Assembly: GCA_902775595.1 (NCBI GenBank)
Contig: CACYNF010000002.1
Coordinates: forward strand, 3,390 to 67,389
DNA: 64,000 nucleotides
Direction of reading: 5' to 3'
Source of the DNA: an uncultured bacterium
GTDB taxonomy: Bacteria > Verrucomicrobiota > Kiritimatiellia > RFP12 > UBA1067
Translations under genes and position numbers: made by a program
In this document: piece after piece, positions 33,224 through 57,279 of the stretch
Layout: the number at the start of each line of letters is the position of its first letter
Numbering within the stretch: position 1 is the first letter of the stretch
Notes under the pieces: model-generated
Database searches by the model: none
What the model was told of the DNA's origin: nothing
The model's input: only the letters and a program-made list of their open reading frames with translations

Positions 33224-33316
33224 AGTCTATGTGCCTTTCCTTTTTCGTTTGAGCATGAAAAAAGGGAACCAGCGCCACAAGGCGGGGGCTCCCCGTTTTC
33301 AAAGTTGCGTTTTGCG

Positions 33317-34066: not shown

Positions 34067-34081
34067 TTGGTTCTCCTTTCG

Positions 34082-34459
34082 TTACTTCAGTTCCCTCGCC
34101 CAGGAACGCCCTGGGGTTTCGCATGCCTTGCCGTGGGTGACGGTGATTCCGCCTTCGCCCCTGTGTTCGACCGTCCTGTGGGTCATGAACCTCAGCAGGC
34201 TCTCGCGGGTCACGCCGATTGCGCGGCAGCCGCCGCCGTAGACGCGGTCGAGGTATCCACGGTATATGTAGTGGCGCAGGGTACGCCGCTTGACCTTCAG
34301 GATTTCCATCGCGTCGCCGAACCTGACGTTGTGGACGATGTCGTCGTCCGATTCGGCCTTGCCGCGAAGTGCGGCTATCGCCCGCTCCAGCATGTCCTTC
34401 GTGACCTCGGGGTCCATCATGACCATGCTCCTGATCGCGTTTTCTGTTTCCGGCTTCAT
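34082..34459 (-). CDS. excisionase-family HTH (HTH_17-like) DNA-binding protein, copy A (125 aa)
   Basis: MEILKVKRRTLRHYIYRGYLDRVYGGGCRAIGV; near-identical paralogue at 59581-59967 on the opposite strand. Confidence 0.55.
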   Translation of the reverse strand: MKPETENAIRSMVMMDPEVTKDMLERAIAALRGKAESDDDIVHNVRFGDAMEILKVKRRTLRHYIYRGYLDRVYGGGCRAIGVTRESLLRFMTHRTVEHRGEGGITVTHGKACETPGRSWARELK

Positions 34460-34468
34460 GCGCTCTCC

Positions 34469-35290: not shown

Positions 35291-35407
35291 TGGTGTTTCC
35301 TTTCTCTTGGGCGAAAACAGAAAACGGAGGCCGTGCCTTAATAATGGCGCAGCCTCCGTCCTCGTGTGCCGACTCCTTGCGGGGCCGATCCGCAAATGCG
35401 CGCCAGC

Positions 35408-37539: not shown

Positions 37540-38010
37540 CTACTGGCCGAGCGGCGGCCACAGGCCGTTCTCGGATATCAACTCCAGCACGAAGTCGCAG
37601 TTCATCGTGCGGTGCGGCGCACTCGCCCGCTGGTGCTGCTCCTCAAGCTCCGCGTCCGTCCACGTCGGCACGTATACGCTGGCGTAGCGGATCATCCCGT
37701 CCCTGACGGCGGCGTATATGTTCGTAAGCGCGGGATGCGTAACGCCGTCCGTGATCCTCACGAGGCGCATTGCGGAATTCGAGACCGCCTCTCGTCCGGA
37801 GAACGACCTGTCGTACTCCCACATGATGTGCGCCGCGACGAGGTCGTTCGAGTTCACCGCAAACCTCTGCTGCGCCAGCTCGTAGACGTTCGTGAAGTTC
37901 CCGTTCCACCAGTCATTGGTGACCGAGTGGAAGTTGTCAGCTGTAGGCGCTGCGGTGGTTGTTATTGCCAATGCCGCGACAAAGGCGGCGATGATGCTCC
38001 CAATTTTCAT
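37540..38010 (-). CDS. secreted hypothetical protein (signal peptide), 156 aa
   Basis: MKIGSIIAAFVAALAITTTAAPTA signal-peptide-like N-terminus. Confidence 0.5.
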   Translation of the reverse strand: MKIGSIIAAFVAALAITTTAAPTADNFHSVTNDWWNGNFTNVYELAQQRFAVNSNDLVAAHIMWEYDRSFSGREAVSNSAMRLVRITDGVTHPALTNIYAAVRDGMIRYASVYVPTWTDAELEEQHQRASAPHRTMNCDFVLELISENGLWPPLGQ

Positions 38011-38029
38011 ATGTTGTTTCCTTTCTTCT

Positions 38030-40924
38030 TTATTGAATCAGCCCTTCCCAACGCCCACGGTTGATCATTTCCGGGGAGCGGAAGAAGTAGTTGTAGTCGA
38101 TTACCGCAAGAGGCGACACATCGACGTGGTTGTCGGTTGGGGTGGGGTTGGGCCAGAGATTCCTCGCCTTCTGCGGGAGCTGCGGCCACATCTGCCTCGC
38201 GACAAGGCTGCCCACGCTCTGTGCATTCCCACCTGCGGCAAGGCTCTGCCCCGCCGCCCAGCTCCAGTTGCCAGTGGCGTCGTTCGCGGTTCCGATGCGC
38301 TGCGCGGCCTCCTGATTCTCATGCGTCACGCCGAGTATTTCACATCCGTACCCGCACACGAAGTTCGAGAGCTTCGCCATAGGGACGGGGAAACCGTACC
38401 ATGTCGAGACCGCGCCAAGCCCGTTGGTGTCAACCACCTGGTTGTAGCGCCATACGGTCCGCCACAAGGCGTTGTCCACGCGCCCGCGATAGTCGCCGCA
38501 GCCTGCGATGACGAACCACTTGACCCCGAAGTAGGCGTCGTTTCGCTCCTTGAACGTGTACTTGTCGACAAGTCCGTTCATGATTGTCGCAACCTTCGCG
38601 AGATCGCCCTCAAACACCGCGTCGACAGTCGCGCCCGCGAGCGGAAGGACGATGTTCCCCTCCGTCCACGGACAGCCATCGCAGCGCCCCCTGAAACGAT
38701 ACACACCTCCCTGCACAGGATTCACGAACCATGCCTCGAGCCCGCCCTCGTGCAAGAGTGACCCGCTCATCTGCGGCTTCGCCTCCACGACCTCCCAGTC
38801 GCAGGGCAGAGACGATCCGTTCACGCCCGCCGGAGCGAGGACAAGGCTCATCTGCACCGAGAAGTTCGTGACCGAGAACCCGTCGTCGCCCAGGGCCGCC
38901 ACATTGCAGAACGGGACCACGAGATGCCTGTCCGGGGCGAGGCTGTTCGTAATCGAGAACGGACACAGCGTCTCGCCGTCGAACGGAGGCGGGTTCGCGC
39001 TCGTCCCAGCGTAGTCGCACGTCATCGCGAGATTCGTCACGCAGGCGACCGTGAGGCACGCCGTGTTCGTGTGCGACACGCCGTTGACCTCGCTCACAAG
39101 CCGGAACTCGACGTCGCCTATTCCGTCGCTCACGGCCACGCCCTGTATCTCCATCCAGCCGTTCCCCTGCGAGAGGATCGCTATCTTGTCCGCACCCGCC
39201 GTGCATTCAAGAGACATCGACGCCTCAGCGTTCGACGAGTCGGGCGGATCGTACACGCCGGCGACGATGTGGCTGTACCCGCCGCGCATGACGACGCTCG
39301 GAGCGGAGAGGGATACCCATGCCGACGTGTTCGTCTCGTTCACTCGCTGGCAGCCGCACTGCGCCTCCCAGTCGAAGGCCTTTGCATACCCTTCCCAAAG
39401 AGCCGTAACGTGCCACGTCTGCGAGTAGCCTGAGCAGTGGCAGGAGTCGCAGCAGTTCCACACATAGTTGCTGCCCGTGCATTCGACGGCGCAGCAGTTC
39501 CCCGTCACCGAGCCGATCACCACCCCAATGTCGGGATCGCTCATGACATGCCCACCGTTCTCGCCGCCCTGAAGGTCGATGTCAATCGGCCTCTCGACCT
39601 CGAAGTCGTCGCTCGGACCCATTCCGCCGCCAGCCCCCAGAAGCCGCAGTCCAGGCAGTGGTAGATTTGATGGCTGAACTGCGTTCAGCCTAACCACGGC
39701 CTCCGCATCGCTCGACCCAATGTCCTCCACAGGCCAGCTCGCCGTGACGTGATAACTCGCACCCATCAGGAGCGGCACCTCGCACACCTGCCCCTCGTTC
39801 GCGATCACAACGAGGTCGCCGAGGTTGCTCGCCCCGTCGCAGGCAACCGCAATCCGCGTCCTGTCGCGCATCGGCGTGAACGACAGCCAGTAGTAGGCGT
39901 TCGCGTTGGCGTTCGTGTTCCATACGATCTCGTAGCCGCCGTCGTTCGTCGGAACTGCCGTGAGGACGCCGCCGCAGTTGGCGTTGAGCCAGTTCATGCC
40001 GGTTCCATAGCAATCGCCGTCCGAGGCTGTCGGCCACCAGTCGATCAGGTTGTCGATTCCGTCGCCGTCCCAGTCGTGCGGGTCGATGCGCCGGAACACG
40101 CGAAAAAGGTTGTTGCTTCTCACTGTGAAGTCGCCGGTCTCGTTCAGGACGATCTGCGCGTTGACGGCGTTGTTCGTGTCGCCGCCCGCGAAGAACCGCT
40201 CCCACGTGACGGTTCGCGTCCCTTCGCCCGCGTGTGCCCACAGGCGGCTTTCCCCCTGCTGGGCGAGGACATCCCCAAGTCCTGCCGACGGAGCGAACAC
40301 GGGGCCGCACAGCGCGTCCTGGAGCCTTCCGTCCAAGAACCACCAGAAGACCGAGGTCGCCGCATTACTTGGCCCGTATGAAAACGTCCAACCAGTCGCC
40401 TCTCCGCCGATTGCATCGAGGTCGACAATGTGCTTTCCGAAGTCTGACCGGACACCGTGCTGGTGAAGCCGCCCGATGTACACGGCGTTCGACGGCATGG
40501 CAAAGGAATGCCCCGTTTCCATCGTCTCGTAGTCGAGCCTGTAGCCCCGCGCTATCTCCTCCGCCGTCACCGTCGCCTCGGGCTCCCCCTGCCCCGTGCG
40601 CAGCATTGCTGGCCGAGCTGCGCTCGGCCTCTCCACTATCCTCAGTCCAGATGGCTGCGAAAGGCTCGGCAACGCCCCAGCCATGCCCCCGCCCGGCGAT
40701 GGCGCGTTGGCGGGCGGCTCGTTCGTGCCGCCGCCGTTTCCAGGCTTCTGGGCCTCGACGGTAGCGACAACCGCCATAACCGCCAGCAGCGCCTGCGCCA
40801 TTCGCGGCAGCGCCTTCAGCTGCCACCATGCAGTCTTGAGCTGCTTCCGCAGGAGGGCTACGGCGAGCATCCCGTAGAAGAACAGCCCAGCGGCAACCGC
40901 GACTATATTCCAGTTTACTTCCAT
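38030..40924 (-). CDS. large membrane-anchored/surface protein, Cys-rich (964 aa)
   Basis: N-terminal TM helix; CC..EC.G..Y.WNCCDSCHC cluster; no phage family recognised. Confidence 0.5.
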   Translation of the reverse strand: MEVNWNIVAVAAGLFFYGMLAVALLRKQLKTAWWQLKALPRMAQALLAVMAVVATVEAQKPGNGGGTNEPPANAPSPGGGMAGALPSLSQPSGLRIVERPSAARPAMLRTGQGEPEATVTAEEIARGYRLDYETMETGHSFAMPSNAVYIGRLHQHGVRSDFGKHIVDLDAIGGEATGWTFSYGPSNAATSVFWWFLDGRLQDALCGPVFAPSAGLGDVLAQQGESRLWAHAGEGTRTVTWERFFAGGDTNNAVNAQIVLNETGDFTVRSNNLFRVFRRIDPHDWDGDGIDNLIDWWPTASDGDCYGTGMNWLNANCGGVLTAVPTNDGGYEIVWNTNANANAYYWLSFTPMRDRTRIAVACDGASNLGDLVVIANEGQVCEVPLLMGASYHVTASWPVEDIGSSDAEAVVRLNAVQPSNLPLPGLRLLGAGGGMGPSDDFEVERPIDIDLQGGENGGHVMSDPDIGVVIGSVTGNCCAVECTGSNYVWNCCDSCHCSGYSQTWHVTALWEGYAKAFDWEAQCGCQRVNETNTSAWVSLSAPSVVMRGGYSHIVAGVYDPPDSSNAEASMSLECTAGADKIAILSQGNGWMEIQGVAVSDGIGDVEFRLVSEVNGVSHTNTACLTVACVTNLAMTCDYAGTSANPPPFDGETLCPFSITNSLAPDRHLVVPFCNVAALGDDGFSVTNFSVQMSLVLAPAGVNGSSLPCDWEVVEAKPQMSGSLLHEGGLEAWFVNPVQGGVYRFRGRCDGCPWTEGNIVLPLAGATVDAVFEGDLAKVATIMNGLVDKYTFKERNDAYFGVKWFVIAGCGDYRGRVDNALWRTVWRYNQVVDTNGLGAVSTWYGFPVPMAKLSNFVCGYGCEILGVTHENQEAAQRIGTANDATGNWSWAAGQSLAAGGNAQSVGSLVARQMWPQLPQKARNLWPNPTPTDNHVDVSPLAVIDYNYFFRSPEMINRGRWEGLIQ

Positions 40925-40991
40925 AATGTGTTCCCTTTCAGATTTGATGGCCCAGAATTGATGGTCGAACTGCGTTCGACCTATCCCCAGC

Positions 40992-41474
40992 CTACCTGAT
41001 CCTTATCGAGAACCTCTTGTTCTCGACCACCTCGGTGATCGTCTCCCCGACCGCCCCCTCGCCCCGCTTCACGACCTTGGCGAGATTCCACGCCGGGTCG
41101 AAGTACCGGTGGTTGATCGCAACCGTGTCGCCCATCCCGGTGAACACTTGCCCCGTCCGGTGGTTCACGAGATACCGCTCCCCGCAGTCGCACCCGAAGA
41201 CGAATGCCGTCTCCTCGAAGGAGAGGTCGCCGTCCTCGTCGGCGTCGTGCCCGACGGCTACCAGCACTTCGCTCTCCGCGCTCGTGCCTTCAATTTCCAG
41301 CTTTAGGCTGAACACTTCAAGCCGCTCGGCGTCCACCCGCAGCAGTATGTTAGTCGTCACCTCGGTGTCGGGCAGCGCCCCGTCCGGGAGCTGCGGCAGA
41401 ACGATGGTTTTTGCCGCGCAAGCCGTCAGAAAGGCGCACGCGGCGAAGACCACTGCAATTGAACTCTTGATCAT
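40992..41474 (-). CDS. lipoprotein (161 aa)
   Basis: MIKSSIAVVFAACAFLTAC lipobox. Confidence 0.55.
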   Translation of the reverse strand: MIKSSIAVVFAACAFLTACAAKTIVLPQLPDGALPDTEVTTNILLRVDAERLEVFSLKLEIEGTSAESEVLVAVGHDADEDGDLSFEETAFVFGCDCGERYLVNHRTGQVFTGMGDTVAINHRYFDPAWNLAKVVKRGEGAVGETITEVVENKRFSIRIR

Positions 41475-41543
41475 AGATTTTCTCCAGTTTGTCCTTGTGT
41501 TGGCACAATGGAGCATAGTCTAATGATTTCGAGGACTTTTCAA

Positions 41544-41600: not shown

Positions 41601-41740
41601 ATCCCCTCTTTTTAACCTTGCGCGACTCTCTCGTGAGAATTCCATAAATGAAGATATACCCCCTCGTGCGGCAGTTTGCAAGGGCATATCAGACACTTGC
41701 AAATTACGGCATTTGCAGAAGAAATGATATAATACGCAAC

Positions 41741-42424
41741 ATGAGAAAAGCACTAATTGTTGAAGACGACCCTGACTCGGCCGAGGGCTTCAAGATCATC
41801 CTCACTCGCATGGGGTTTGAGTGTGTCGTCGACCCAATCGGAGACATGGCAATCAAGTACCTGTCGAGCGGAGAGTTCGACATCGCAATCATGGACATAG
41901 TCCTCAAGACCAGGATGACCGGCAGCGACATCATCCATGCGGCCAGAGAGCTTGGCGTCAAGACTCCCATCATCGGAGTAAGCGACAAGAGAGGACCAGC
42001 CGACCGCGCAAAAGACCTCCGCGCAGGAGCCACGGACCACATGGAGAAGCCGTGCCACCCTGCGGAACTTCGAGAGCGTGTCCTCAAGGCAGTGAACGGA
42101 CAGGACACGGACACCTATCTCGTCTCGGACGACATCATACTGGACGTAAAGACCCGCACAGCACGGCGCGGTGACAGGGTTCTGAAGCTCCGGCGGCTCA
42201 GCTTCGACCTGCTGACCGTCCTCATGCGCGCCAAGGGCGATTTTATCCCAAGCGCACGTCTGCGCGACACTCTCGGACTCATGCCGAAGTGCGAGGAAAC
42301 AGCCCCACTGGACAAGAACGGCTCGCTTCGTATGGCAATCCTCCGACTGCGCGAAGAACTTACCAGTAACGGCGAACGAGACCCCATCCACCACGAGAAG
42401 CCAAAAGGATATGCGCTATTTTAA
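41741..42424 (+). CDS. OmpR-family two-component response regulator (227 aa)
   Basis: Receiver ALIVEDDPD...DIAIMDIVL plus winged-helix C-terminus; internal start MRKALIV. Confidence 0.8.
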   Translation: MRKALIVEDDPDSAEGFKIILTRMGFECVVDPIGDMAIKYLSSGEFDIAIMDIVLKTRMTGSDIIHAARELGVKTPIIGVSDKRGPADRAKDLRAGATDHMEKPCHPAELRERVLKAVNGQDTDTYLVSDDIILDVKTRTARRGDRVLKLRRLSFDLLTVLMRAKGDFIPSARLRDTLGLMPKCEETAPLDKNGSLRMAILRLREELTSNGERDPIHHEKPKGYALF

Positions 42425-43466
42425 GACCCCGCTCGCCAGACGACTCTTCTGGATTGTATTCCTGTCCGTGAACGGCATGGCGTTCTTCGTCTGGCCTATA
42501 ATCGATATGATTTCCATGAGCGAGGCCACGGCCAAGGCCATCTCCAACGCTCGGGCCAATGCCACGTTCGAGGCAATCGACACACTTGTCGACCATGTTA
42601 AGCTCCTATCGCATCGCAGCTGGATTGCATTCGCCGTCAATTCAGTCGTTGGCACGACACTCGCGACGGCACTGGCATTTTTCGTTTGCCGTCCGATAGA
42701 CGGGATGCAAGAGAAAATCCGCGATCTAATCCACGACCTGCGCGGCCCCCTATCCGGAATCCTGAACGATGTCCGAATCGCCATCGACACGAAATGCAAT
42801 CTGATGGCGGCTCTCTTTTCGGTCAGGGCGAAGGCAGAATCCGTGCTGGCGACCTACGATCTCAATGCCGAGATCGTGCGGAACTACGCGGGGGTCGACA
42901 AGGGCGAAGTGTCTGACGTCGATCTCACGGAAATCGTCGAGGACTACGCGGAATTGTTCGGCGACGAGGCAGAGTCAAAAGGCGTCAAGTTCGTGGTTTC
43001 TCGGCCAACCGACGCCGTCATCGTCCGCGCCCACGAAGACAAGATGAAAAGGCTCGTCGCCAACCTCGTGGAAAACGCGGTGAAGTACACCGACAAGGGC
43101 AAGGTATGCGTCGCTCTTGCCGTAAAGAAATCAAAGTTCACGTTGACCGTCGCCGACACGGGCATCGGCATGACCAAAGACGAACAGAAGCTCATCTACA
43201 ATGAATACTATCGCACCACGCGAACCAGCGACAGGCCGGGCATCGGATGCGGACTTGCAATGATCGGCTCGATAGTAGAACTCTACAAAGGCACCATCGA
43301 CTGTGACTCCTCGCCAGGCAAGGGCACGACCTTCACCATCACCCTTCCGCTCGACCTCACTCCGCGCAAGCCGATCCTCCGCCGTGCCGTCGTCGGCTGC
43401 GGTCGCTGCGCTTCAAGCATATGCAAAAGAATACGGCGCGCCCTGGGGCGCGGGGAGCCAGCGTAG
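42411..43466 (+). CDS. sensor histidine kinase (351 aa)
   Basis: Two TM helices, H-box IHDLRGPLSGI, HATPase_c motifs (VADTGIGM, GIGCGLAM, GKGTTF). Confidence 0.8.
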   Translation: MRYFKTPLARRLFWIVFLSVNGMAFFVWPIIDMISMSEATAKAISNARANATFEAIDTLVDHVKLLSHRSWIAFAVNSVVGTTLATALAFFVCRPIDGMQEKIRDLIHDLRGPLSGILNDVRIAIDTKCNLMAALFSVRAKAESVLATYDLNAEIVRNYAGVDKGEVSDVDLTEIVEDYAELFGDEAESKGVKFVVSRPTDAVIVRAHEDKMKRLVANLVENAVKYTDKGKVCVALAVKKSKFTLTVADTGIGMTKDEQKLIYNEYYRTTRTSDRPGIGCGLAMIGSIVELYKGTIDCDSSPGKGTTFTITLPLDLTPRKPILRRAVVGCGRCASSICKRIRRALGRGEPA

Positions 43467-43496: not shown

Positions 43497-46400
43497 TCAC
43501 CACCAGTATCGGAAATCCTTGATGGAGAGGGAAAAGAACGCCGAGTTATCTTCGGAGAACTTTTCGTCGTATGTGACCGTGAACAGCCCGTTGGACGTCG
43601 TGTAGTTCGAGGTGTCTACCGGGAACTTGTCAGGATACTGGTACATATCGTAGCCGTATTCCTCCGCATGGGCATAGGGGGTGCCGAAATCCATATGGTG
43701 CTTTATGCCGAACATGAACCGCAGGGGCGGCTGGACGATCCGCGTTCCATCGGCGGGGACGATCTGACCGGTGACGGTGCGGGACGAGGGGTCTATTCCA
43801 ACCGCCTTCACCGCAGGGTACTTGAAGAACATCGTCACTTCCCTTCCGTCGTCTGGCTTTCTGTGATAAGGCGATATGCCGAGGTCGATGCACATCTTCG
43901 GCGCGTCGAGCGGCTCGCAGCCGGAATCGTCCTCCCAGGGATACATCGTGATGCACTCGGCAGTGCTCAATGCCTCAAAGCCCACGATGCCAGCAAGGTT
44001 ATCCAGTTCGTCGTCAGTGAGTTCGGCATTCCCAGCTCCAAATCGCTTCGGATAAATTTCTATGCCCGTGAGAGGATCTATCGTCGTGCTGCTGAACACG
44101 ACGTCGTCGATGCTCGCATTGCCGCCGAGGCCGAGAGCCGTGACCCCAGTCCTGTCCGACGCCTCGGGACGCGCCCTGAATACAGTCGATCCGTCCGCCT
44201 GGGAGCAGGCAAGGATGCCGTCGATGTAGATTCGATAGGCGAGGCCATGCGGCGAGCCGTCGTTCACCGCCTCGATCTCGACCGTCACCCAGTTGCCCAA
44301 GGGTGAAGCCAGCCCGCTTCCGCCCTCCTTCTCCGCAAGACGCACATCTCTGGACACCAGCCCGCCTACGGCATTGGCAATCCCGGCGTTGATCTGCCAG
44401 CAGCATGTACCATGCCCGTCGTCACAGTCGAAGTAGTACAGCGCGATCTTGTCGTCAATGTTGATCACGCACGCCGGCGTAAATATAAACTCAGGTCCGA
44501 TCGTGCCCGCTGACGGCGGCGCAGACGTTGGATACAGAGTAGGGTCACCCTCCGTCCATGCTCGGCTGCTGTTCTTCTTGAACGATGTCTTCAGCGTCTG
44601 CCACTTGCCGGGGACATAGCGGGGGCCAAGCCCGCCGTTCACCCTTTCGTTGACGGAGAACCACGCCCGCGCTCCATGCAGGCCACCGACCTTGACGCAC
44701 CTCCGGCCGGAATACCTGCCGTCGTCAATAGACGCCTCGAAATACAATCCCGTCACCATCAAGTGGCATGCCACCTCCGGCATGTTGGTGGCGTCCATCC
44801 ACTGCACACCGTTGTTGAAGTTGCACCGCCAGATCAGCCCCTCCACCGGATCGTCCGGCCCGTCGTCGACGCCCTCGAATCCACGGGCGACGAACGGCGC
44901 ACCCGCCGTTTCCGACATCTCGCTTGCGAGGACGGCGGGAACCCCGTCCCTGAGGCCAATCGCCATCCAGCCGTAGCGGGTGCGCCGCGTCGTGTCGTTC
45001 GCATCGGGCCACCACTTGAAAGCCATGAAGAACAGATCGCCGTTGTCATAGTCGCAGGTTGTCCGCCCTTCCGAGAACGTATCGTCGCCAATGTACGATC
45101 CGGGTGACGTCAGCGCAACATAGCCACACCCGCGGGAATGGTTTATCGAAACGTCCCAGCAGCTTTCCGTGTAGTTGAAGATGACGAAATCGAAGGCTGT
45201 GTCCCTGCGGTGCAGAATATGCGGAGTCCGTTCCGATGTCGCGTAGAAGGTGTTGGTTTCGCAGCCCGTAGCCGGGTCTACGAAGGGATCGGGCGGCACT
45301 ACTACTTCCGATCCGTTGACCAGAAGTTCGTTCTGCTCGTTGCAGATGGCGGATTCAAGTATTACAAGTTCCGCATTCTCGTCAAGGCCAAGGGAGATGT
45401 ATCCGTACCATGTATGGCTGTTCAGTACCATGTTCCGGTACCAGTTGCAGAACTCGAACACGAAGGGATAGGCGGTCGCGGACACCTCGTAGGCATGCGG
45501 CGGCATGTCGTTGTCGTCGACATAGTGCTCACCTTCCTTGGCGATCTTGACTCGCGGATCGTCAACGCCAGACCCGTGGAACACGACTTGCCAGTTGTTG
45601 GTCTCAAACCTGTCGACTGCATAGTCTATGCCTGTAAGCCCCGGCACGGTACAGGCAAGGTGCGGTATTCCCCCCGGTATAATCCTGAAGCAGTCCCGGT
45701 AGATGTAGATCCCCTCTCGCGGCTGCTCAGGCACAGGAGGATCAACGGGGTCCTCGGGAACTTCCGGCTCGTCGGGAGGCGGGTCGGCAAAGGCGTGTTC
45801 GGAAACTTCCACACCCTCCGGGATCGATATCGCCGACTTGTCGGACGTCCAACCGAAGGCATGGTCGCCGATGCGCTCTACCGTCGGAGGAACCTCGACT
45901 GGCTGGAGCGCGGCAGGCCACGCGACAAGCTCCGTGCCGGTGGCATCGTAGAGTACGCCGCCTATGGACTTGTACGCTTCATTGCCGTCCTCGACGAGAA
46001 TGGCCGTGAGGGTCGGGCACCCGACGAACGACGCGGGATCGACGTAGAGAATGTCCTGTCGAATCCTTGCCGTCGTGAGCGACGGGCAGTTGTGAAAGGC
46101 GTTGTCGAAGTCGGTGAATCCAGACGGGAGGTCTACGACTTCGAGCGACGGGCAGTTGTTGAAGGCGTAGTTTCCGAACGTCACCTCACCCTTCGGCAGC
46201 GTGACGGACTGAAGGTTGTCGCAGTTCAGGAATGCGGAAACGCCGATGTTCGTCACGCACTCGGGGATGGAAACCTCCGTCAAACTGTCGCAGTTGTAGC
46301 AAGTCATGGTGTCAAGGTTCCCCACATGCGCCGAGAACTTGACCGAGCGCATGGACTTGCATCCCCAGAACGTGTCACGCCCCATCGAGGTTACGGAATC

Positions 46401-46859
46401 CGGGATGCGTCCGACATCAAGCTTCTGGCAGTTAAAGAACACTGCATCGCCCAGGGTCGTCAGATTCGATGGCAAGGTGGCGGTCACGAGATTTGAACAC
46501 CCACGGCAGGCGTAAAACTCTATCGACTCGACGCTTTCCGGTATCTTCAGGGAAGTTATCTGGCCAAGCTCGAAGAACGCATAGCTCCCAATCGCCTTCA
46601 CCGTCAGCCCCCCGAGTGTGTCCGGAATTACTACATCGCCCGTTGTCCAGCCGACAGCCGTATTCAAGTGCCCGCCGTAGACTCTTGCCGCGCCGTTTGT
46701 CACGGTGTACTTCCAGGTGAGGTTCCCGACATCTTCCGAGAATATCTCGTCGGCGGCACGAGTCTCCGTGTCCACTGCGGCGAAAAGGAAGCACAGGACG
46801 GCGCGTAACCACACCCTCCTCATCTTCCATCCATCATGCCCTGTCGATGCGTATCTCAT
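43497..46859 (-). CDS. BspA-type leucine-rich-repeat surface protein (1120 aa)
   Basis: Signal-peptide-like N-terminus; repeated IP.SV..IG..AF..C..L.SV.. units. Confidence 0.7.
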   Translation of the reverse strand: MRYASTGHDGWKMRRVWLRAVLCFLFAAVDTETRAADEIFSEDVGNLTWKYTVTNGAARVYGGHLNTAVGWTTGDVVIPDTLGGLTVKAIGSYAFFELGQITSLKIPESVESIEFYACRGCSNLVTATLPSNLTTLGDAVFFNCQKLDVGRIPDSVTSMGRDTFWGCKSMRSVKFSAHVGNLDTMTCYNCDSLTEVSIPECVTNIGVSAFLNCDNLQSVTLPKGEVTFGNYAFNNCPSLEVVDLPSGFTDFDNAFHNCPSLTTARIRQDILYVDPASFVGCPTLTAILVEDGNEAYKSIGGVLYDATGTELVAWPAALQPVEVPPTVERIGDHAFGWTSDKSAISIPEGVEVSEHAFADPPPDEPEVPEDPVDPPVPEQPREGIYIYRDCFRIIPGGIPHLACTVPGLTGIDYAVDRFETNNWQVVFHGSGVDDPRVKIAKEGEHYVDDNDMPPHAYEVSATAYPFVFEFCNWYRNMVLNSHTWYGYISLGLDENAELVILESAICNEQNELLVNGSEVVVPPDPFVDPATGCETNTFYATSERTPHILHRRDTAFDFVIFNYTESCWDVSINHSRGCGYVALTSPGSYIGDDTFSEGRTTCDYDNGDLFFMAFKWWPDANDTTRRTRYGWMAIGLRDGVPAVLASEMSETAGAPFVARGFEGVDDGPDDPVEGLIWRCNFNNGVQWMDATNMPEVACHLMVTGLYFEASIDDGRYSGRRCVKVGGLHGARAWFSVNERVNGGLGPRYVPGKWQTLKTSFKKNSSRAWTEGDPTLYPTSAPPSAGTIGPEFIFTPACVINIDDKIALYYFDCDDGHGTCCWQINAGIANAVGGLVSRDVRLAEKEGGSGLASPLGNWVTVEIEAVNDGSPHGLAYRIYIDGILACSQADGSTVFRARPEASDRTGVTALGLGGNASIDDVVFSSTTIDPLTGIEIYPKRFGAGNAELTDDELDNLAGIVGFEALSTAECITMYPWEDDSGCEPLDAPKMCIDLGISPYHRKPDDGREVTMFFKYPAVKAVGIDPSSRTVTGQIVPADGTRIVQPPLRFMFGIKHHMDFGTPYAHAEEYGYDMYQYPDKFPVDTSNYTTSNGLFTVTYDEKFSEDNSAFFSLSIKDFRYWW

Positions 46860-47275
46860 CTCAAAAGCTCGTTGCGGAGCCGTATAACCTCATCGCGGAG
46901 CCTGTCGCGTTCCGCTTCGGCGGTCAGCCTCGCGTCGCGTTCCCGCTTCAACTTCGCCTCAAGATCGGCAGATTTGCGCTCCGCTGCGTCCTTCGCAACG
47001 CTCAAAGCCGCAGATTCGGCCCGTACAGCCTCCAGGTTCGCTTCCAGCGCGGCGTAGGCGTCGTTGCCCGCCTCCGCGTCGGGCGCGCCACAGCCGCCCT
47101 CAGCCCCCGCTCTTACCGATTCCCTTTCCCCTCTTCCCGTAAGGCCAAAGTAAGCAAGCGCATCGTCCCCACCAGCCGATGCCTCCTTCGGAATCGGCTT
47201 GACTTCCACCACGGGTTCGCTCTTCCTGAACATCCCCTTGGACAGCTGCGAGAAGTCTGTAAACGTTCGGCCCAT
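46856..47275 (-). CDS. coiled-coil protein (139 aa), coupled to ubiquitin-like gene
   Basis: ATGA overlaps both neighbours; C-terminal heptad-like ...EAKLKRERDARLTAEAERDRLRDEVIRLRNELL. Confidence 0.45.
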   Translation of the reverse strand: MGRTFTDFSQLSKGMFRKSEPVVEVKPIPKEASAGGDDALAYFGLTGRGERESVRAGAEGGCGAPDAEAGNDAYAALEANLEAVRAESAALSVAKDAAERKSADLEAKLKRERDARLTAEAERDRLRDEVIRLRNELLR

Positions 47276-47928
47276 TACTCGACCTCCTTATCGGGCAGTT
47301 CTTCCAGCGCGAACACTTTGTAGAACCAGGCGTTCCCATAGGAGGCCGGAAGGTACAGCGTGATGGAGACGCTTTGCGGTGCTGTGCTGGAAGCAGACGC
47401 GACGGCGTTTGTCGCCACGGCGAGGTGCAGGCCTATACAGGCATCAAAGGATTCAATTGAAGCAAGTCCCTCGACCGTCGGAGCCGTGGCAACGTGGATA
47501 GAGTTGTTGTAATCGGCAAGAAGCGTGTCCGCGTTTCCCTCCGAGAGTACGGTGTCTAAGGACAGCGCAACGCCGCCGTCAGCGTCTACCTCTATCCCCG
47601 CCAGTTCTACCGAGGCGAAACTCGTGGCCGGTTCGCCGTTCCCATACGTCAGGATGAGACGAAGTGTCGCCTCCTTCTGGATGTTGTAGTCCGCAAGTGT
47701 ATGTCCGTATTCAAGAACCTTTCCCGCGAAGATCAGCCTTTGCACGCTGGGCGGATATCCTTCCTTGTCCTGGATCTTCGCCTTGACGTTATCGATGGAG
47801 TCGCCTGGCTCGACCTCCAATGTGATGGTCTTGCCTGTCTGGGTCTTGACGAATATCTGCATGGCGAAAGCCTCCGCCCCCACAAAGGCGGCGGCAATCA
47901 TCACCAGAACTCTCGCAAGACGCATCAT
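47275..47928 (-). CDS. secreted eukaryotic-like ubiquitin homologue with about 120-aa C-terminal extension (217 aa)
   Basis: Signal peptide [22 protein letters not shown]; next 76 aa [76 protein letters not shown] align gap-free to ubiquitin (about 58/76 identical, all seven Lys conserved). Confidence 0.8.
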
Positions 47929-47934
47929 CCTTTA

Positions 47935-48072
47935 CAGCACCTCCACCATCCGCACCAGTTCGGCGCGGATGCGCTCCTCCTCGGCCTTGTCGCCGTGAGC
48001 GACGGCATACGCCAGCAAGCCCTCCAGCTTCTGGATTTCCTCCATATACCGCGCTCTCTGCTCCATGTTCAT
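47935..48072 (-). CDS. small ORF (about 46 aa), not in supplied track
   Basis: [46 protein letters not shown] read by eye. Confidence 0.25.
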
Positions 48073-48073: not shown

Positions 48074-48409
48074 TTACGCCGCCAGCTCCGCCACGCGCTT
48101 CGATGCGTCGACCTTGACGAGGAACGTCACGTGGTATGGTGCGCGGGTGTTGGGTATCTTCTCGTCGAACCGTTCGACCGTCGCCGAGATTCCGAACTCC
48201 GTCTTGGCGAACGCGACTGCGCTATCGAGCGCAGCCTGTGCGTCCTCGCCTGTGACAGGCTCCTCGCCGAACTTCTCGATGTGCAGCGTCGTTCTCTCCG
48301 GCGGCATCATCGCCACTGCCACATACCACCCGTCCTTCTCGCAGGCGGCTTCCATCCTCTTTTCGATCTCGCGCTCAATCCGCGCCATGTTGTTAATATT
48401 ATCGGACAT
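48074..48409 (-). CDS. hypothetical protein (111 aa)
   Basis: Clean protein-like ORF; last high-GC gene before island. Confidence 0.45.
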   Translation of the reverse strand: MSDNINNMARIEREIEKRMEAACEKDGWYVAVAMMPPERTTLHIEKFGEEPVTGEDAQAALDSAVAFAKTEFGISATVERFDEKIPNTRAPYHVTFLVKVDASKRVAELAA

Positions 48410-48480: not shown

Positions 48481-50625
48481 TTACAGCTCACCAATAAAGC
48501 CATTCTCTTGGCAACGACGCAAGATCTGCTGAAGTTGCTTACAAGCAAAGTCCTGCGGAATATGGTTACGAATGACAGATGTAAGAGCCATCTGCTCCCT
48601 CGGAAGCACGCCTATCTTTTTGTTTGAATATGCGAAGTTCTGAACCTCCATCCAGAAGGCAGGCCCCTTGCTTATAACTTTCTTTTGAAGTTCGACACCC
48701 GACAGCATCTTGCCGACAAGCTTCGCCTTTTTCTCTTCTCGTTGCTGTTGATCCTTGCTGATCATCAGGTCATTCAGAGCAGAAAGACCCGACAGGTCAA
48801 CATCAACGTGCGCCGGCATGGACTCCCAGAATGCCTTCTGCTTGCAACGCTGCGTGTAGTTCGTCACGCCAGACCTCTCATTGACGATTTCCTCGTAGAC
48901 CTGCTTACTGATCTTCTTGAAAACCTTCTGCAAAATCGGCGGCAGTTCCTGCATGCGCCAAATCTGATCAAGATTCAGAACCCTATCGGGGAATTGCTCA
49001 GCCAGCAAGCGATGAAGCATGGCAATCGAATAAGTCACGGTATTGGCGCGGAACGAACCCGTATACCAGTCTTGATTGCTTACAAGATCTTCAACTGCCT
49101 TAAACATTATGGCAAGCGCCACCGTGTCCTTGAAATACTGTATGTTGTAACGGGCTCTTTCATTTGGGCCTTTCTCCCAAATTTGAGAAACCTCCTGCGC
49201 AAACGACTGAAAGTTCGACTGTGCGCCCTTGCTCACCGAGTAGGGCCGTTCATCCCAGCTATAGCGATACTTGGCAAGATCAGTCTTGGTAATCTTTTGC
49301 TTTGGCGGGAACTCCCTCTTGAACGCCTCTTTCTGGGCACGCGAGAGCTTCATCTGCTTCTGCGTATACTGACCTCTAGCTCGCTCATAGAACCAATAGG
49401 TCCGCAACTGCGTAGAGGACACCGACGGCGCTGGTGTCATTTCGGAAATCTTCTCGATCTGAACATGGAACGGATGCGTGGAGAAGAAGTCGGCATCTGA
49501 CACTTTGTTCTGCTGGTTGGATGCGCGTGAAATCGTCCGAAGCAAATCCTGCTTGTCGTCGTCTATCATACCATCATGAGTGACGGTCAACTTCATTAAG
49601 ACGTTAATCTTCGACAAGTCGGCGCGATCGCAGAAGCGCGCGTTTGAAATGCTCGCCGTTGTTTGGCCTCCGTTTATGATCTGAAACTCTTCTGCATAGG
49701 CCAAGTTGCCTTCATCGTCAAAACGCACATTGGATGCCGTCACGGAGATGCCGTTGTTAAATGCAAAGAATTGCTCTGGAGTTCGCAGGATCGTCTCGCG
49801 GATGCGTTTGTTTACAGCGCCCTTTGTCGAAAGGAAGGAGCGGACGTTTCCTTCAAGCAATCGAGCCCCAAACTCATCATAAATATCTGCCAGCACAACA
49901 CCAGGGACTATGCCCATATAACTGGAATAGCGGAAGCGATTTGGAACGCACGACTCCCCGGCGGGAACACAATGGACAACACGGGGCTTGTATTGCGAAA
50001 AATCAATCTGCAATGTTCCTCGACCCTCGACAGCGGATGAAAGGTCGTAGATGGCTCGGATGTCGTAAACCAGCAATTCAACCGGCTTTGTCTCAATGTC
50101 CGGGAATTTCGTACGCTTTGCGTTGTCAGTAACAATACCATCAGTCAACAAGTAGACACGGAACTTGCGAATAGAGGACTCCGTTGCCCCCATGTGGGCG
50201 TTGATGATTTCAATGCAATCTAGATAATCCGTCGCTTCAGACGAGAATTCCTTGAGAGTGTTTCGGTCTCTGATAAAATTGAGGGCGGCCTCAACGTCTG
50301 GCCGAATGTCAGGAAGACCCATCTTGACGGGCTCTTCATCGCCATCAAACTTCGTCACAAAAAGATTGAGGAATCCATCGACGGCAGAAAAGGAATACCC
50401 ATTGATATGATAGCGCTTCCGATCTTTCGCCACCACGTGGTCAAAGAAGGCGGGGGTGTAATCATCGACCAGCTCGGCCTGTTCGAGCTCTTCCGTCACG
50501 CGATCAGCGAACGCCTCCTCACTCGTCTTTCCGTTGACAGCCAGCTCATTCTGGATGTCAATCAGGAGCGCCTCGCGATATTCAAGCGCATCCTGTTCCT
50601 GTTGTTTCTTTTCTGCAGCGGTCAT
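48481..50625 (-). CDS. AIPR-family abortive-infection protein (714 aa)
   Basis: Size; IINGGQTTASISNA-type motif; last gene of island operon; start in AAGGAGG context 2 nt after upstream stop. Confidence 0.5.
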   Translation of the reverse strand: MTAAEKKQQEQDALEYREALLIDIQNELAVNGKTSEEAFADRVTEELEQAELVDDYTPAFFDHVVAKDRKRYHINGYSFSAVDGFLNLFVTKFDGDEEPVKMGLPDIRPDVEAALNFIRDRNTLKEFSSEATDYLDCIEIINAHMGATESSIRKFRVYLLTDGIVTDNAKRTKFPDIETKPVELLVYDIRAIYDLSSAVEGRGTLQIDFSQYKPRVVHCVPAGESCVPNRFRYSSYMGIVPGVVLADIYDEFGARLLEGNVRSFLSTKGAVNKRIRETILRTPEQFFAFNNGISVTASNVRFDDEGNLAYAEEFQIINGGQTTASISNARFCDRADLSKINVLMKLTVTHDGMIDDDKQDLLRTISRASNQQNKVSDADFFSTHPFHVQIEKISEMTPAPSVSSTQLRTYWFYERARGQYTQKQMKLSRAQKEAFKREFPPKQKITKTDLAKYRYSWDERPYSVSKGAQSNFQSFAQEVSQIWEKGPNERARYNIQYFKDTVALAIMFKAVEDLVSNQDWYTGSFRANTVTYSIAMLHRLLAEQFPDRVLNLDQIWRMQELPPILQKVFKKISKQVYEEIVNERSGVTNYTQRCKQKAFWESMPAHVDVDLSGLSALNDLMISKDQQQREEKKAKLVGKMLSGVELQKKVISKGPAFWMEVQNFAYSNKKIGVLPREQMALTSVIRNHIPQDFACKQLQQILRRCQENGFIGEL

Positions 50626-50627
50626 GC

Positions 50628-51560
50628 TCAAGCCTCCTTGAATTCCTCTATGGCCGGAAGACTCAGCGAATACTGACAGGCCGTCACGGCGGACACAAGC
50701 GCTGACCTCCGAACACACGGGAACTCTGGTGTCACCTTGTAGATGTCCCGGCAACGCACCTGGAATCTCCGATTTTCATATTCTGGTTCGCCATCCACAT
50801 AGCGAGCAAGATACAGTTTGCTGTCAAGCATTGTCCTGGCCGCAACGCTTGTTGCCGCCCCACGAGCCTTTTCGACAATGTCTTTAAGTGAAAAAGCCTC
50901 TTCCTTGTTCTCTGACGCCCGGTCGATGTGATAAACAATCAAAGAGCCTGCAACTTCGGAATCAAGCTGTTCGATTGAGGATATGGTAATTGCCGTCGCA
51001 CTAACCTTGCAACTCTTGACCTCGGCCCAGTTTTCATAGAACTCAAAGTCTTTGTCCATCTTGAACGGACCCACCCAGGCATCAAGCGCATCTTCAAATC
51101 CTTTGGACTCTGCAAAATACAAAAGCGCAAGAAGTTCTGCCGCAAGACCTTGCTGCTCCTGCGTTGACATAATTCCAGGACGCGTTCCCTTGAGCAGATC
51201 CTGCCAAGCCGCGAATCGTGTCAGCAAGCTCAACAACGCCGAATCGCGAGAGTCTTTCCGTGTAGCCTCGAACAAGTCATAGCAAAGCGTATTGAATACG
51301 TCACGATGTTGCGGCGTGAGAAGCGAAAACGAAAGGCATGCCTTGTCTTTCTTTGTAAAGGAAAGGACAAGTATCTGCGCCGTAGATGGTATCTCCGCCG
51401 AGCTAAATGTTTTCCCGATGTCCTCAATCAAAAGCGTTGGACGCCCGGTATTGTCCAGCCCGAAATACACCGACAACGGGAGATCCGGGTCAACGATGAA
51501 ATAGCGCAGAGGAGCCTTCTCTACAGCCTTAATTCGATTGATAAATGAATTGAAGTCCAT
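50628..51560 (-). CDS. hypothetical protein, DUF4420-like position (310 aa)
   Basis: Between Z1226-like and AIPR genes; start 1 nt after upstream stop. Confidence 0.35.
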   Translation of the reverse strand: MDFNSFINRIKAVEKAPLRYFIVDPDLPLSVYFGLDNTGRPTLLIEDIGKTFSSAEIPSTAQILVLSFTKKDKACLSFSLLTPQHRDVFNTLCYDLFEATRKDSRDSALLSLLTRFAAWQDLLKGTRPGIMSTQEQQGLAAELLALLYFAESKGFEDALDAWVGPFKMDKDFEFYENWAEVKSCKVSATAITISSIEQLDSEVAGSLIVYHIDRASENKEEAFSLKDIVEKARGAATSVAARTMLDSKLYLARYVDGEPEYENRRFQVRCRDIYKVTPEFPCVRRSALVSAVTACQYSLSLPAIEEFKEA

Positions 51561-51561
51561 T

Positions 51562-54246
51562 TCAGTCCTCCTCCTCTGCATTTAAGTAATCCATCAACGA
51601 GCTCTCTTCATAGGCTCGTTTGGTAAAGAAATATTCCTGTTCAACCTGATCGTCTTTCGATCCGGGGAAACCAAAACTCAACGCGAAGAATGACTTCGTC
51701 TTGGGCATTTCAGACCCCTTACATGGTTCGCTCATCTCAACATACTGTACCACCAGCAACGGCCTACGCCCTGACGCCTTTGCCTTAACGAGGAATCTCT
51801 CGTCCGGCGGCTCGCGGTTTTCATACCCCCTGACCGACTGATAAGACTTAACCACCTGCCTTGCGTCTGCCGGAGTCAGAATGTACCGCATCGCACCTCC
51901 CGAGGTGACTTTCAGTTTAGTTCCGCTGATCATGACTTCCCGTGTGGAACTGACGACTGCAAGCATTCGTCTAGCTTTGCGGATATGCAGCGGCAACGGC
52001 GCATCTTCCGGTCCAGCATAAGCCGCTTCCCCAGCTTTGGCAACCGGGATTGCCACGTCCCAATTCGAACCAAGGTTAGAGATGTAATCGGCGATTTGGG
52101 GGACCATAAAGCCGAAACTCATCATCCCCGCCTTGAACTTGGCCAACATCTTCGTGATCTCTTCCGGCGGGACATTCCGCAAGAACCGCATGTTGTCCCA
52201 CACGATGTCTTTTTCAAGCAACCCTATGTTGTTTCTGATAAAAGAACAAACAGACTTGTCGTTTTCACTGGTCACGTCTGGATCGTTCTTGATGCGCGGC
52301 GTTTCAACAGCATGACCTGCCAAGACAATCGGGAAGCTGATACGGGTTGCCGTCCGCATTTTATTACGCGCAGTTGGCAACATTGCACCAGGCGACTTCC
52401 TGATCTTAAACGCAAAATCCTTCGGCGACCCGTCTTGCTCGACAATCTGGTGGAACATTTCAGACAAATCTTCGGAAATGTCGCTTGCATATCCGAAGTT
52501 GTCAACGGCGTTTTGAGGCATCCACACACGAACAAGACTTTGGTATATCCCGCGATATCCGCACCAGCGTCCCATCTGAAGTAGCGTGTCGCTCATCATG
52601 GTATTGCGACGGAAGTAGCTCACTACAAGGCCTTCCAGCGTCAAGCCTCGGGAAAGAGCATTTCCGCCAATTACAATGTAGCGTTTGTCTGTATCCGAAT
52701 AATCTAGTGCCTTAACTGTCTTGCCGCTATTAACGACAACGGTTTCAATGGTTTTGATCGAATCGAGCAATATGGTCTTGAGGAACTTGTTCCAGGTCAT
52801 TCCTTCACATGCGCGACTAAGACCATACTCATCCCAAATATCATGAAGCTGCTTCAGTTCGGGAATCCGCTCCGCCTTCTTTGGATCGCCGCAGTAATTC
52901 GACACTCGGGACACAATCCGTTTCACATAATCCTCTATGTGACTGAGCAAGCGATTCTGTATGGCTACAAAACGGCTAACGTGAATCATCATCGAGCGGT
53001 GTCCGATGTGATCGCCGGACTGTCCGATGACATCCATTACACCATTTACGAGCATGAAGTAGCCGATAGCAGTCTGCAACGACTTGGGCAAGTCCTCGCT
53101 TGGGTACTCATCTTTTTTATGCGTTGTCGGGAGCCACAGCTCAATGTCATCGATAATTTTAAGGTACGGTGCGCCAGGATCAAATAGTTTTGACGCCCCG
53201 AAGTAGTTTGATGGCGTGGTCAGCCGGTACACGAAGCTACGCGGGAACAGGTCATCCGCGACCACCTTGTCCTCGGAGTCAGGATCGATGAACACATTTG
53301 CAAATGGAGTCGCTGTTATCCCAACATATGAAGACCGCGTGAAGGACTTCAGAATCTTACGAATCAGCTCATTCGTGCGCGTGGGATTCGCCTCTTCAGA
53401 GAGCTTCTTCGTGTTGATGGAGGCATTGTCCGCCTCGTCGTCGATGAACAACAGGGGCCAAGGGAGCGTGACGTCACCCTGAGCCGACACGGTTTTAACA
53501 CCTTTCTGAAGCCACTTGTAAAGGTGCTGCAGGACGGATACGTTCTTCTTGACGACGCAAAGCACGGGAACATCGTCACGAAAGACGTGAACAGGGTTTT
53601 CCCCTTGCTGCTTTCTGAAGTCGTACGTTGCGCCCGTAAGTTTGACGACCTGCTTAAGGGGCAAGAGGTTTATGAATTCTTTTTCAAGACGACCTTGGGT
53701 TTGACGGCGGAGTTTTTCGATAATGCCTGCAGTAATGATAATCACCCGATAACCTGCATCTGCGGCCTTGTTGCACAGCGCGATGAAGTTGGCCGTCTTG
53801 CCAGACTGGATATCACCCATTACCAACCCGCGAATATTGAACTTGGGGCTCTTGGGATTCCCCAAGTGGTTCATAATGGCATCGGAACTCTTATCAAGTT
53901 CACGGATGACGTTCGGGCTCCATTGCTTTTGGCGAAGCTTTGCTAAGTAAGCAGTGAACCACTCATCATGATCCCCTTTAATTTTTGTAAACCAGTCCTT
54001 TGCTTGCGCATCATACTCCGCGCCATCCACAATGCACTCGTCCTCTGGCTTGTACACACCGACTAGTGCGATAAGCTTGCGAACAATCAAAGCAATCTCG
54101 TCGGCAGAAAGGCCCCCGAATCGAGAAGCCTCCTTTGCCACCGTCTCCTCGATCTGTTCCTCCGTTAGGTTCCCGGTCGCCTCGTCGTTGCTATAGACGA
54201 CGCACAACCATTCAAGAATCATTCGCCCCTGTTTAGACAGTACCAT
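51562..54246 (-). CDS. Z1226-like P-loop ATPase/helicase-like protein (894 aa)
   Basis: GLVMGDIQSGKTANFIALCN Walker A; LLFIDDEADNAS; start ATG with GAGGAGGAG RBS inside last codons of upstream gene. Confidence 0.55.
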   Translation of the reverse strand: MVLSKQGRMILEWLCVVYSNDEATGNLTEEQIEETVAKEASRFGGLSADEIALIVRKLIALVGVYKPEDECIVDGAEYDAQAKDWFTKIKGDHDEWFTAYLAKLRQKQWSPNVIRELDKSSDAIMNHLGNPKSPKFNIRGLVMGDIQSGKTANFIALCNKAADAGYRVIIITAGIIEKLRRQTQGRLEKEFINLLPLKQVVKLTGATYDFRKQQGENPVHVFRDDVPVLCVVKKNVSVLQHLYKWLQKGVKTVSAQGDVTLPWPLLFIDDEADNASINTKKLSEEANPTRTNELIRKILKSFTRSSYVGITATPFANVFIDPDSEDKVVADDLFPRSFVYRLTTPSNYFGASKLFDPGAPYLKIIDDIELWLPTTHKKDEYPSEDLPKSLQTAIGYFMLVNGVMDVIGQSGDHIGHRSMMIHVSRFVAIQNRLLSHIEDYVKRIVSRVSNYCGDPKKAERIPELKQLHDIWDEYGLSRACEGMTWNKFLKTILLDSIKTIETVVVNSGKTVKALDYSDTDKRYIVIGGNALSRGLTLEGLVVSYFRRNTMMSDTLLQMGRWCGYRGIYQSLVRVWMPQNAVDNFGYASDISEDLSEMFHQIVEQDGSPKDFAFKIRKSPGAMLPTARNKMRTATRISFPIVLAGHAVETPRIKNDPDVTSENDKSVCSFIRNNIGLLEKDIVWDNMRFLRNVPPEEITKMLAKFKAGMMSFGFMVPQIADYISNLGSNWDVAIPVAKAGEAAYAGPEDAPLPLHIRKARRMLAVVSSTREVMISGTKLKVTSGGAMRYILTPADARQVVKSYQSVRGYENREPPDERFLVKAKASGRRPLLVVQYVEMSEPCKGSEMPKTKSFFALSFGFPGSKDDQVEQEYFFTKRAYEESSLMDYLNAEEED

Positions 54247-57267: not shown

Positions 57268-57279
57268 GGCCCCTCCTCC

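Follow-up and report, generated by a model that had tools for sequence, protein, structure and literature searches.

A predicted exported ubiquitin with an orphan C-terminal domain in the cargo of a phage-like element of probable rumen Kiritimatiellia

The 64,000-nucleotide window analysed in this study (contig CACYNF010000002.1, assembly GCA_902775595.1) carries on its minus strand a gene of 217 amino acids (aa) plus stop, here called Ub-Cdom (47275..47928; open reading frame (ORF) call and translation), whose product joins a signal peptide, a eukaryote-type ubiquitin domain and an orphan C-terminal domain (C-domain). Residues 1-22 (47863..47928, minus strand) have the n-, h- and c-regions expected of a Sec signal peptide that looks cleavable, with MMRLAR (+2), a hydrophobic core of 11-12 residues and AEAFA, which places Ala at -3 and -1 of a predicted signal peptidase I (SPase I) site between AFA and MQ, directly before ubiquitin Met1. 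This segment has no lipobox and is not long enough for a membrane anchor. Residues 23-98 (47635..47862, minus strand) were assigned to ubiquitin by Pfam, Protein Data Bank (PDB) matches and alignment. They aligned to human ubiquitin without gaps and were identical at 58 of 76 positions (76.3%), far above a threshold of about 40% identity; PF00240 matched with E=3.3e-25 (88.1 bits, cutoff 25.4), and single-ubiquitin chains in the PDB matched with E of about 1e-31 to 1e-32. The seven ubiquitin lysines (K6, K11, K27, K29, K33, K48 and K63) are all kept, the domain contains no Cys, and it carries the substitutions L8Q, I36Y, H68R and V70I. The AlphaFold2 (AF2) model gave the ubiquitin domain a predicted local distance difference test (pLDDT) score of 78-92 and a beta-grasp pattern of secondary structure, with a full-length pLDDT of 68. 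At its end, LTYGNG replaces LRLRGG, and with GG missing conjugation is unlikely. Residues 99-217 (47278..47634, minus strand) form the 119-aa C-domain, for which prediction gives a beta-sandwich plus two short helices; the mature protein has 195 aa. A sequence-only reading of this DNA had proposed the ubiquitin match, the signal peptide, the loss of conjugation and an extension of about 120 aa, and these four proposals were borne out.

The contiguity of the assembly, on which that reading depended, also held. Through the region the sequence recurs at 100% identity in an independently made Logan assembly (L001, ERR3224579) and in ENA contigs, so that a chimeric assembly is excluded, and the exact window protein is present on three more contigs. 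Codon usage had been said to match the host and to speak against contamination; contamination can indeed be set aside, but the match was overstated, because the GC content at third codon positions (GC3) is 0.69 in Ub-Cdom and 0.85-0.92 in backbone genes. The ratio of nonsynonymous to synonymous substitution rates (dN/dS) was 1.23 for the signal peptide versus 0.28-0.57 for the mature part, and the latter range indicates that the gene is functional. Among homologues the sequence of the signal peptide drifts, yet GAEAFA is retained in the c-region. Judged from these ratios, the mature protein is under purifying selection but evolving much faster than eukaryotic ubiquitin.

Whole-protein searches were flooded by eukaryotic polyubiquitins, and the family was therefore searched with the C-domain alone. 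The C-terminal 119 residues, followed by a profile search, yielded about 20 clusters. Full-length homologues at 89-94% identity were found in metagenome collections, many of them in records bearing rumen-study names, and 90%-identity clusters of 26 and 42 members drew on ENA, Logan and JGI metagenomes, where STEW19 and RUG were common record names. An exhaustive HMMER search of 1.84 billion representative proteins with the C-domain profile returned only 29 matches. Wherever a match covered the whole C-domain and was long enough for an N-terminal domain, the C-domain started about 100 residues in; all five such full-domain matches that were scanned carry a ubiquitin domain N-terminally, and the remaining matches proved to be either short fragments or artefacts of repeat proteins. 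On this evidence the C-domain is an orphan, confined essentially to positions behind ubiquitin. Weak large matches of the profile to HEAT, PPC and RCC1 proteins were rejected as repeat or low-complexity artefacts. The C-domain was not found in IMG/VR, where a scan with the family alignment gave giant-virus ubiquitins only.

Members of this family occur in rumen metagenome-assembled genomes (MAGs) of Kiritimatiellae, Lentisphaerae and Verrucomicrobia. They keep the signal-peptide character and the cleavage region despite differing signal sequences, and within the family the C-domain diverges faster than the ubiquitin domain. The ubiquitin tails read LTYGNG, LTYGNS, LVSGIG, LRLRPP, LRIRPA or LRLRGP; no examined member has GG followed by the chain end at the ubiquitin position, and all depart from LRLRGG in the last tail residues. 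Paralogues also occur. In the related contig L004 (11500-12156, likewise in L005 and L006) a second Ub-Cdom paralogue, identical to human ubiquitin at 68/76 positions, with the tail LRLRPPG and 49% identical to the window protein, sits at the position of the leucine-rich-repeat (LRR) gene of the window, and RUG10674 carries two divergent paralogues. As a separate observation, L092:2429-3430 and L093:9977-10981 encode an extra C-terminal Cyclophilin-like domain (PF18050) behind the ubiquitin and C-domains, which deserves mention since the target of the Bacteroides fragilis ubiquitin BfUbb is a peptidyl-prolyl isomerase (PPIase).

The same junction recurs in many other prokaryotes. We scanned one genome per prokaryotic species (GTDB species representatives), in which at least 509 loci encode eukaryote-type ubiquitin, and took class statistics from the best 80 loci, that is, those most similar to the query; 71 loci with a signal-peptide junction were analysed and 53 members were scanned with Pfam. 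In 71 of the 80, a hydrophobic signal peptide ends directly before ubiquitin Met1, with Ala at -1 in 63/71 and Ala or Val at -3 in 65/71. These 71 span at least 8 phyla and include complete genomes (Paenibacillus, Cohnella), isolates (Dyella humi, Lachnospira multipara) and MAGs from rumen, lake, marine and soil sources. Examples are Paenibacillus sp. FA6 (chromosome, L106), Cohnella sp. (L165), Dyella humi (L137), Lachnospira multipara LB2003 (L144) and a Methanothrix MAG (L129); members from Ruminococcus, Fibrobacter, Paenibacillus, Burkholderiales and others lie in L094-L166. The region after ubiquitin, X, ranges from zero to about 1,600 residues, and its partners are autotransporter beta-domains, SLH, Flg_new, GLUG, type IX secretion system (T9SS) tails, IPTL-CTERM, cadherin and Ig-like domains; the L120 translation ends in a PEP-CTERM-like tail. 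By their domain assignments, the X parts of the class are hallmarks of surface or secreted proteins. The ubiquitin surface is conserved (I44 and H68 in 65/71 each, L8 in 58/71, V70 in 57/71, the lysines in 60-70/71), and the tail is decayed, with R74 in 23/71, G75 in 21/71, G76 in 15/71 and an intact LRLRGG in 7/71.

The window protein has all four features of this class, namely the signal peptide/Met1 junction, the ubiquitin core, the degenerate tail and the C-terminal extension. Its ubiquitin subtype (G20, S22, D24, H54, A57) is common to class members of rumen Firmicutes. Identity to the ubiquitins of these bacteria was 61/72 for the window protein and up to 66/72 for a family member, compared with 57/72 and 60/72, respectively, to human ubiquitin. 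As the nearest ubiquitin relatives are bacterial, the gene derives from a bacterial pool and not from direct transfer out of a eukaryote. Most class members, however, are large and have recognisable anchor or adhesin domains (autotransporter, SLH, Flg_new, T9SS tail), whereas the window family is small, with an orphan C-domain, no recognisable anchor and a ubiquitin identity of 76% against 85-95% in the typical class member. The open-access literature searched gave no description of the signal peptide-ubiquitin-X class, or of phage-encoded or widespread bacterial ubiquitin.

Other known ubiquitin systems share single features with the window protein. The ubiquitins of eukaryotic viruses (giant viruses, entomopoxvirus, baculovirus) are likewise virus-borne copies of the eukaryote type; they are cytoplasmic and presumably conjugatable, whereas the window protein is predicted to be exported and non-conjugatable and lies on a bacterial virus-like element. 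Among the best 80 IMG/VR ubiquitin matches, 71 keep LRLRGG, mostly followed by one to a few residues, and none has a convincing signal peptide; most are on low-GC contigs, many labelled as giant-virus bins. Bil/ISG15-like proteins, Pup, TtuB/SAMP-type proteins and E1/E2/JAB operons share the prokaryotic beta-grasp fold and sometimes a phage-defence context, but these ubiquitin-like systems are cytoplasmic, distant in sequence, end in Gly or Gly-Gly and stand beside E1/E2/JAB genes, none of which applies to the window gene. No E1, E2 or JAB/deubiquitinase domain was found among the larger ORFs of the element and the neighbours scanned. A ubiquitin-like conjugation or defence system, considered given the adjacent defence island, was rejected, with no E1/E2/JAB domain among the ORFs scanned, a signal peptide present and the Gly tail absent.

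The genetic setting, a phage-like element of about 69 kb and an adjoining defence island, had been overlooked in the sequence-only reading. The genes of the window lie almost exclusively on the minus strand. A phage hallmark region (2305..35395, minus strand; Pfam and PHROGs) contains virion genes for a fibre-like Flg_new repeat protein, tape measure, capsid, lambda-type portal and large terminase, together with genes for DNA methylases, an S-adenosylmethionine (SAM) synthetase, primase-polymerase, helicase, single-stranded DNA-binding protein, AAA_24 and a DUF3799 exonuclease. Contigs from different assemblies, with lengths of 68,221, 68,375 and 68,781 bp, match the window at 100% identity; they reach only 988 bp and 3,994 bp past it and add only fibre-like and small genes; no cellular housekeeping genes were found on these 68.2-68.8 kb contigs. 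Several assemblies show the same contig ends. Upstream of the replication module, the order is an envelope-directed block, a two-component system and a five-gene operon with Ub-Cdom, then a return to 66% GC; the operon segment has 58-60% GC inside a 65% GC element, and the defence island adjoins it. Both flanks are retained in the related contigs L004-L006, with proteins 76-99% identical; the island is replaced there by another restriction-modification set, and the second ubiquitin paralogue and a 61-aa LRR remnant stand where the window has the LRR gene. In the stretch next to the operon (48481..58986, minus strand) L004-L006 hold a different gene set between the same flanks. Since related contigs share flanks and differ in cargo, the ubiquitin operon is regarded as cargo of a variable hot-spot, and, to judge from these contig comparisons, this places Ub-Cdom in the hot-spot of the roughly 69-kb phage-like element. 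Members of the 90% cluster of the terminase are annotated as Kiritimatiellia MAGs, and, because this cluster sits in such MAGs and the family members in rumen MAGs of Kiritimatiellae, Lentisphaerae and Verrucomicrobia, the host is probably a cattle-rumen bacterium of the Planctomycetes-Verrucomicrobia-Chlamydiae (PVC) group, Kiritimatiellia.

Several further observations concern this element. The regions 17650-18903 and 22084-27616 of the window hold genes for at least five DNA methyltransferases, of the C5 and N6/N4 types and in one case fused to a ParB-like domain, and for a SAM synthetase of the element's own, which suggests heavy anti-restriction investment. Two paralogous HTH_17 excisionase-like genes lie at 34082-34459, in the replication module, and at 59581-59967, on the opposite strand beside the defence island, and a Cro/C1-type helix-turn-helix gene lies near 59.2 kb. 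Tail-distal proteins with Flg_new repeats and BspA-type LRR_5, lacking signal peptides, are encoded at 2305-4788 of the window and at L171:11240-13077, past its left end; thus the repeat families of the exported 1120-aa cargo protein described below are also those of the presumed virion fibres.

Ub-Cdom is the third gene of the tightly packed operon, which encodes, in order of transcription, proteins of 111 aa and 46 aa, Ub-Cdom, a coiled-coil protein and a 1120-aa BspA-type LRR protein. The first gene (48074..48409, minus strand) has an AAGGAG ribosome-binding site, and its 111-aa product is a recurrent neighbour with homologues in L004, L088 and L090. The 46-aa protein (47932..48072, minus strand) is helical and cytoplasmic, and its homologues recur beside Ub-Cdom genes in L004, L088, L090 and L167. 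The coiled-coil protein (139 aa, 46856..47275, minus strand) has no signal peptide; its start overlaps the Ub-Cdom stop by 1 nt (TAATG), and its counterpart in L004 has 289 aa with an additional C-terminal domain. The last gene (43497..46859, minus strand) encodes the exported LRR protein (PF13306 LRR_5, E=8e-47), which has a signal-peptide-like N-terminal segment and whose C-terminus reads ...FFSLSIKDFRYWW. The coiled-coil-to-LRR junction is ATGA, provided that the LRR protein starts at its first Met; the gene call of another assembly uses Met13. The earlier proposal of ATGA coupling to a coiled-coil and a BspA-type LRR gene thus stands as to the tight operon, but the junction at Ub-Cdom itself is TAATG and the ATGA lies one gene on. 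Homology between the C-domain and the C-terminus of the LRR partner was considered and rejected (hhalign probability 0.07).

Behind the Ub-Cdom gene, L004 and L088 retain C-terminal remnants of the LRR protein, and L168 has a homologue of its middle domain. In L004 (12153-12338) the remnant is a 61-aa ORF that joins a signal peptide to the last approximately 35 residues of the LRR protein (...FFSLTIKDFRYWW; window 43497-43600), and L088 keeps the same remnant near 3549-3611. This aromatic C-terminus, retained in deletion derivatives, may be a sorting or assembly signal. Between the hallmark region and the operon, the envelope-directed block (37540..41516, minus strand; N-terminal sequences) encodes a 156-aa secreted protein, a 964-aa membrane protein and a 174-aa lipoprotein with the lipobox LTAC, and is conserved in L004-L006 and L169. 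It is followed by a complete two-component system (41648..43466, plus strand), a response regulator with a histidine kinase, which is convergent with the operon and inside the lower-GC cargo segment. The 46-aa, 111-aa, coiled-coil, 964-aa and 895-aa proteins had no matches in PHROGs, NCBIfam or Pfam, and a promoter and terminator scan was uninformative.

Taken together, we favour the reading that the element supplies its host with an exported, non-conjugatable recognition module as conversion-type cargo, to which, arguing from sequence, we give a probability of about 0.45. The protein would be exported by Sec, and a cut between AFA and MQ would make ubiquitin Met1 the mature N-terminus outside the cytoplasm; the protein could be neither activated nor conjugated. 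With conjugation implausible, non-covalent binding is the most likely mode of action. The ubiquitin fold would then be exposed as a head, with the C-domain acting as a stalk or docking module particular to the family, and the element would provide the whole protein to its host together with other envelope proteins, the LRR adhesin among them, as in lysogenic conversion. Candidates for the bound partner are rumen eukaryotes, other bacteria and the surface of the producer itself. The specific role, a cell-envelope or extracellular recognition module serving adhesion or mimicry, is proposed tentatively, with the odds leaning somewhat against it.

A number of observations weigh against this reading. 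The substitutions L8Q, H68R, V70I and I36Y alter the canonical recognition patch of ubiquitin, and this partial erosion of the I44 patch cautions against a simple account in which the protein binds eukaryotic ubiquitin receptors; strict mimicry is also weakened by the rate at which the ubiquitin domain evolves, which is higher than in eukaryotes. No recognisable anchor or sorting motif was seen in the window protein. Elsewhere, Ub-Cdom is solitary among ordinary chromosomal genes and has no LRR partner, so the operon partnership is not obligatory and a role as a diffusible effector is equally compatible. As to the element, which may be a prophage, a free phage or a phage-plasmid, no integrase was found among the ORFs scanned in the approximately 69 kb, no lysis genes were identified, and the contig ends showed no overlap in a circularity test (no tRNA was found either). 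The operon is separated by about 12 kb from the last gene that can be recognised as phage, and its description as phage cargo therefore rests on whole-contig evidence.

The evidence was weighed against an antibacterial toxin of the BfUbb type, which related bacteria would take up and which would then disable a target in their periplasm, to the competitive gain of the host of the element. BfUbb had been named by the sequence-only reading as the only known bacterial precedent and the window protein as its homologue. The former claim is superseded by the publication of BoUbb (PMC11467351) and by the 509 or more prokaryotic loci, although BfUbb and BoUbb (B. fragilis, B. ovatus; PDB 8HM1/8HM3) are the only ones described in the literature searched; of the latter, the extra C-terminal domain is a valid difference, but the protein is not of the BfUbb type. 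The two kinds share a eukaryote-type sequence, horizontal acquisition, variable presence, a non-conjugatable tail and the signal peptide/Met1 junction, with cleavage known experimentally in BfUbb, where SPase I cleavage abuts Met1 (PMC5705921), and predicted in the window protein. A toxin would also fit a gene that is mobile, variably present, often solitary and lower in GC3 than its neighbours in several genomes, with divergent paralogues (two in the L004 locus, two in RUG10674), a fast-diverging C-domain, small adjacent cytoplasmic genes as possible accessory factors, and the cyclophilin-like fusions in L092 and L093, since BfUbb acts on a periplasmic PPIase (PMC11467351). Yet the activity of BfUbb and BoUbb needs a C-terminal disulfide (PMC11467351) and the ubiquitin domain of the window protein is free of Cys. 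BfUbb has 76 aa without extension, whereas the mature window protein adds its 119-aa domain. The window domain is identical to BfUbb at only 41/76 positions (54%), fewer than to human ubiquitin or to the surface ubiquitins of rumen Firmicutes, and BfUbb is 63% identical to human ubiquitin; the BfUbb sequence used here was confirmed by a 166.7-bit full-length match to PDB 8hm3/8hm1. Moreover, BfUbb enters its targets through the Bacteroides SusCD transporter ButCD (PMC11467351), a route that does not apply to a PVC host as opposed to Bacteroidota; the window gene, unlike that of BfUbb, lies on a phage-like element; and no exported immunity candidate was seen at the locus. We consider such a toxin unlikely. 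The window protein may work in the compartment of BfUbb and in a similar spirit, yet it is not a member of the BfUbb family.

The remaining explanations fared less well. The ubiquitin domain could be an inert structural cap: very stable, fast to fold and resistant to proteases, it would shield exported proteins at their N-terminus or keep them soluble, without ubiquitin-specific recognition. This would suit the extreme diversity of C-terminal partners across bacteria, the decay of the conjugation tail and the range of habitats (soil, lakes, sea, rumen), but among the 80 loci nearest the query the ubiquitin surface, including the I44 patch and all lysines, is 80-97% conserved between distant phyla, beyond pure fold constraint, and we place an inert cap slightly below the toxin in likelihood. 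Far less probable is a eukaryote-directed precursor from which deubiquitinases, cutting after ubiquitin, would free ubiquitin and an active C-domain. The model for it is the Globodera effector, with its signal peptide-ubiquitin-extension architecture (PMC5705921): UBCEP12 of Globodera rostochiensis is likewise secreted to act outside its producer, but the producer is a eukaryote instead of a bacterium or phage, and UBCEP12 keeps GG and yields ubiquitin and a peptide of 12 aa when cut inside the plant cell, whereas the window protein has lost GG and has a folded 119-aa extension. Although the rumen is rich in ciliates and fungi, and the 7 of 71 other bacterial members with LRLRGG keep it before an extension, the tail needed for recognition and cleavage is lost throughout the family (LTYGNG, LVSGIG, LRLRPP, LRIRPA, LRLRGP), and no route into the eukaryotic cytosol is evident. 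An artefact, be it eukaryotic contamination, a chimera or a decaying pseudogene, is of negligible probability. Contamination does occur in this kind of data: L142, L151 and L153, three of the best 80 loci, are contigs of only 363-602 bp from assemblies that bear the names Paracoccus, Microbacterium and Marinobacter; they encode polyubiquitin or a ubiquitin-ribosomal fusion lacking a signal peptide and are probably eukaryotic contamination of those assemblies. Ub-Cdom, by contrast, has an intact frame, a bacterial signal peptide, a Shine-Dalgarno sequence, stop/start overlaps with bacterial neighbours, an identical sequence in independent assemblies and dozens of homologues under purifying selection.

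On a broader scale, a near-canonical ubiquitin might be a widespread and coherent head on surface proteins of bacteria of many phyla, engaging the ubiquitin-recognising molecules of eukaryotic predators, hosts or competitors and trafficked among rumen bacteria by phage-like elements as conversion cargo. We regard this extension as doubtful; if true, molecular mimicry between prokaryotes and eukaryotes would have a further layer that has gone unrecognised, and a bacterial virus would for the first time be seen to carry a ubiquitin gene. Secreted bacterial ubiquitin has been treated in the searchable literature as a curiosity of Bacteroides. New at this locus are the architecture of ubiquitin with an orphan domain, the host phylum (rumen Kiritimatiellia) and the vehicle, a phage-like element of about 69 kb. 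Deposited phage genomes (50,697 records) gave no tblastn match to the window protein. A conserved recognition surface together with a decayed tail leads to a testable question, namely what benefit a cell may gain from displaying a non-conjugatable ubiquitin outside. The family and its class offer many natural variants for the study of ubiquitin recognition, of predator-prey and competitor interactions in the rumen, and of the phage-mediated spread of eukaryote-like genes.

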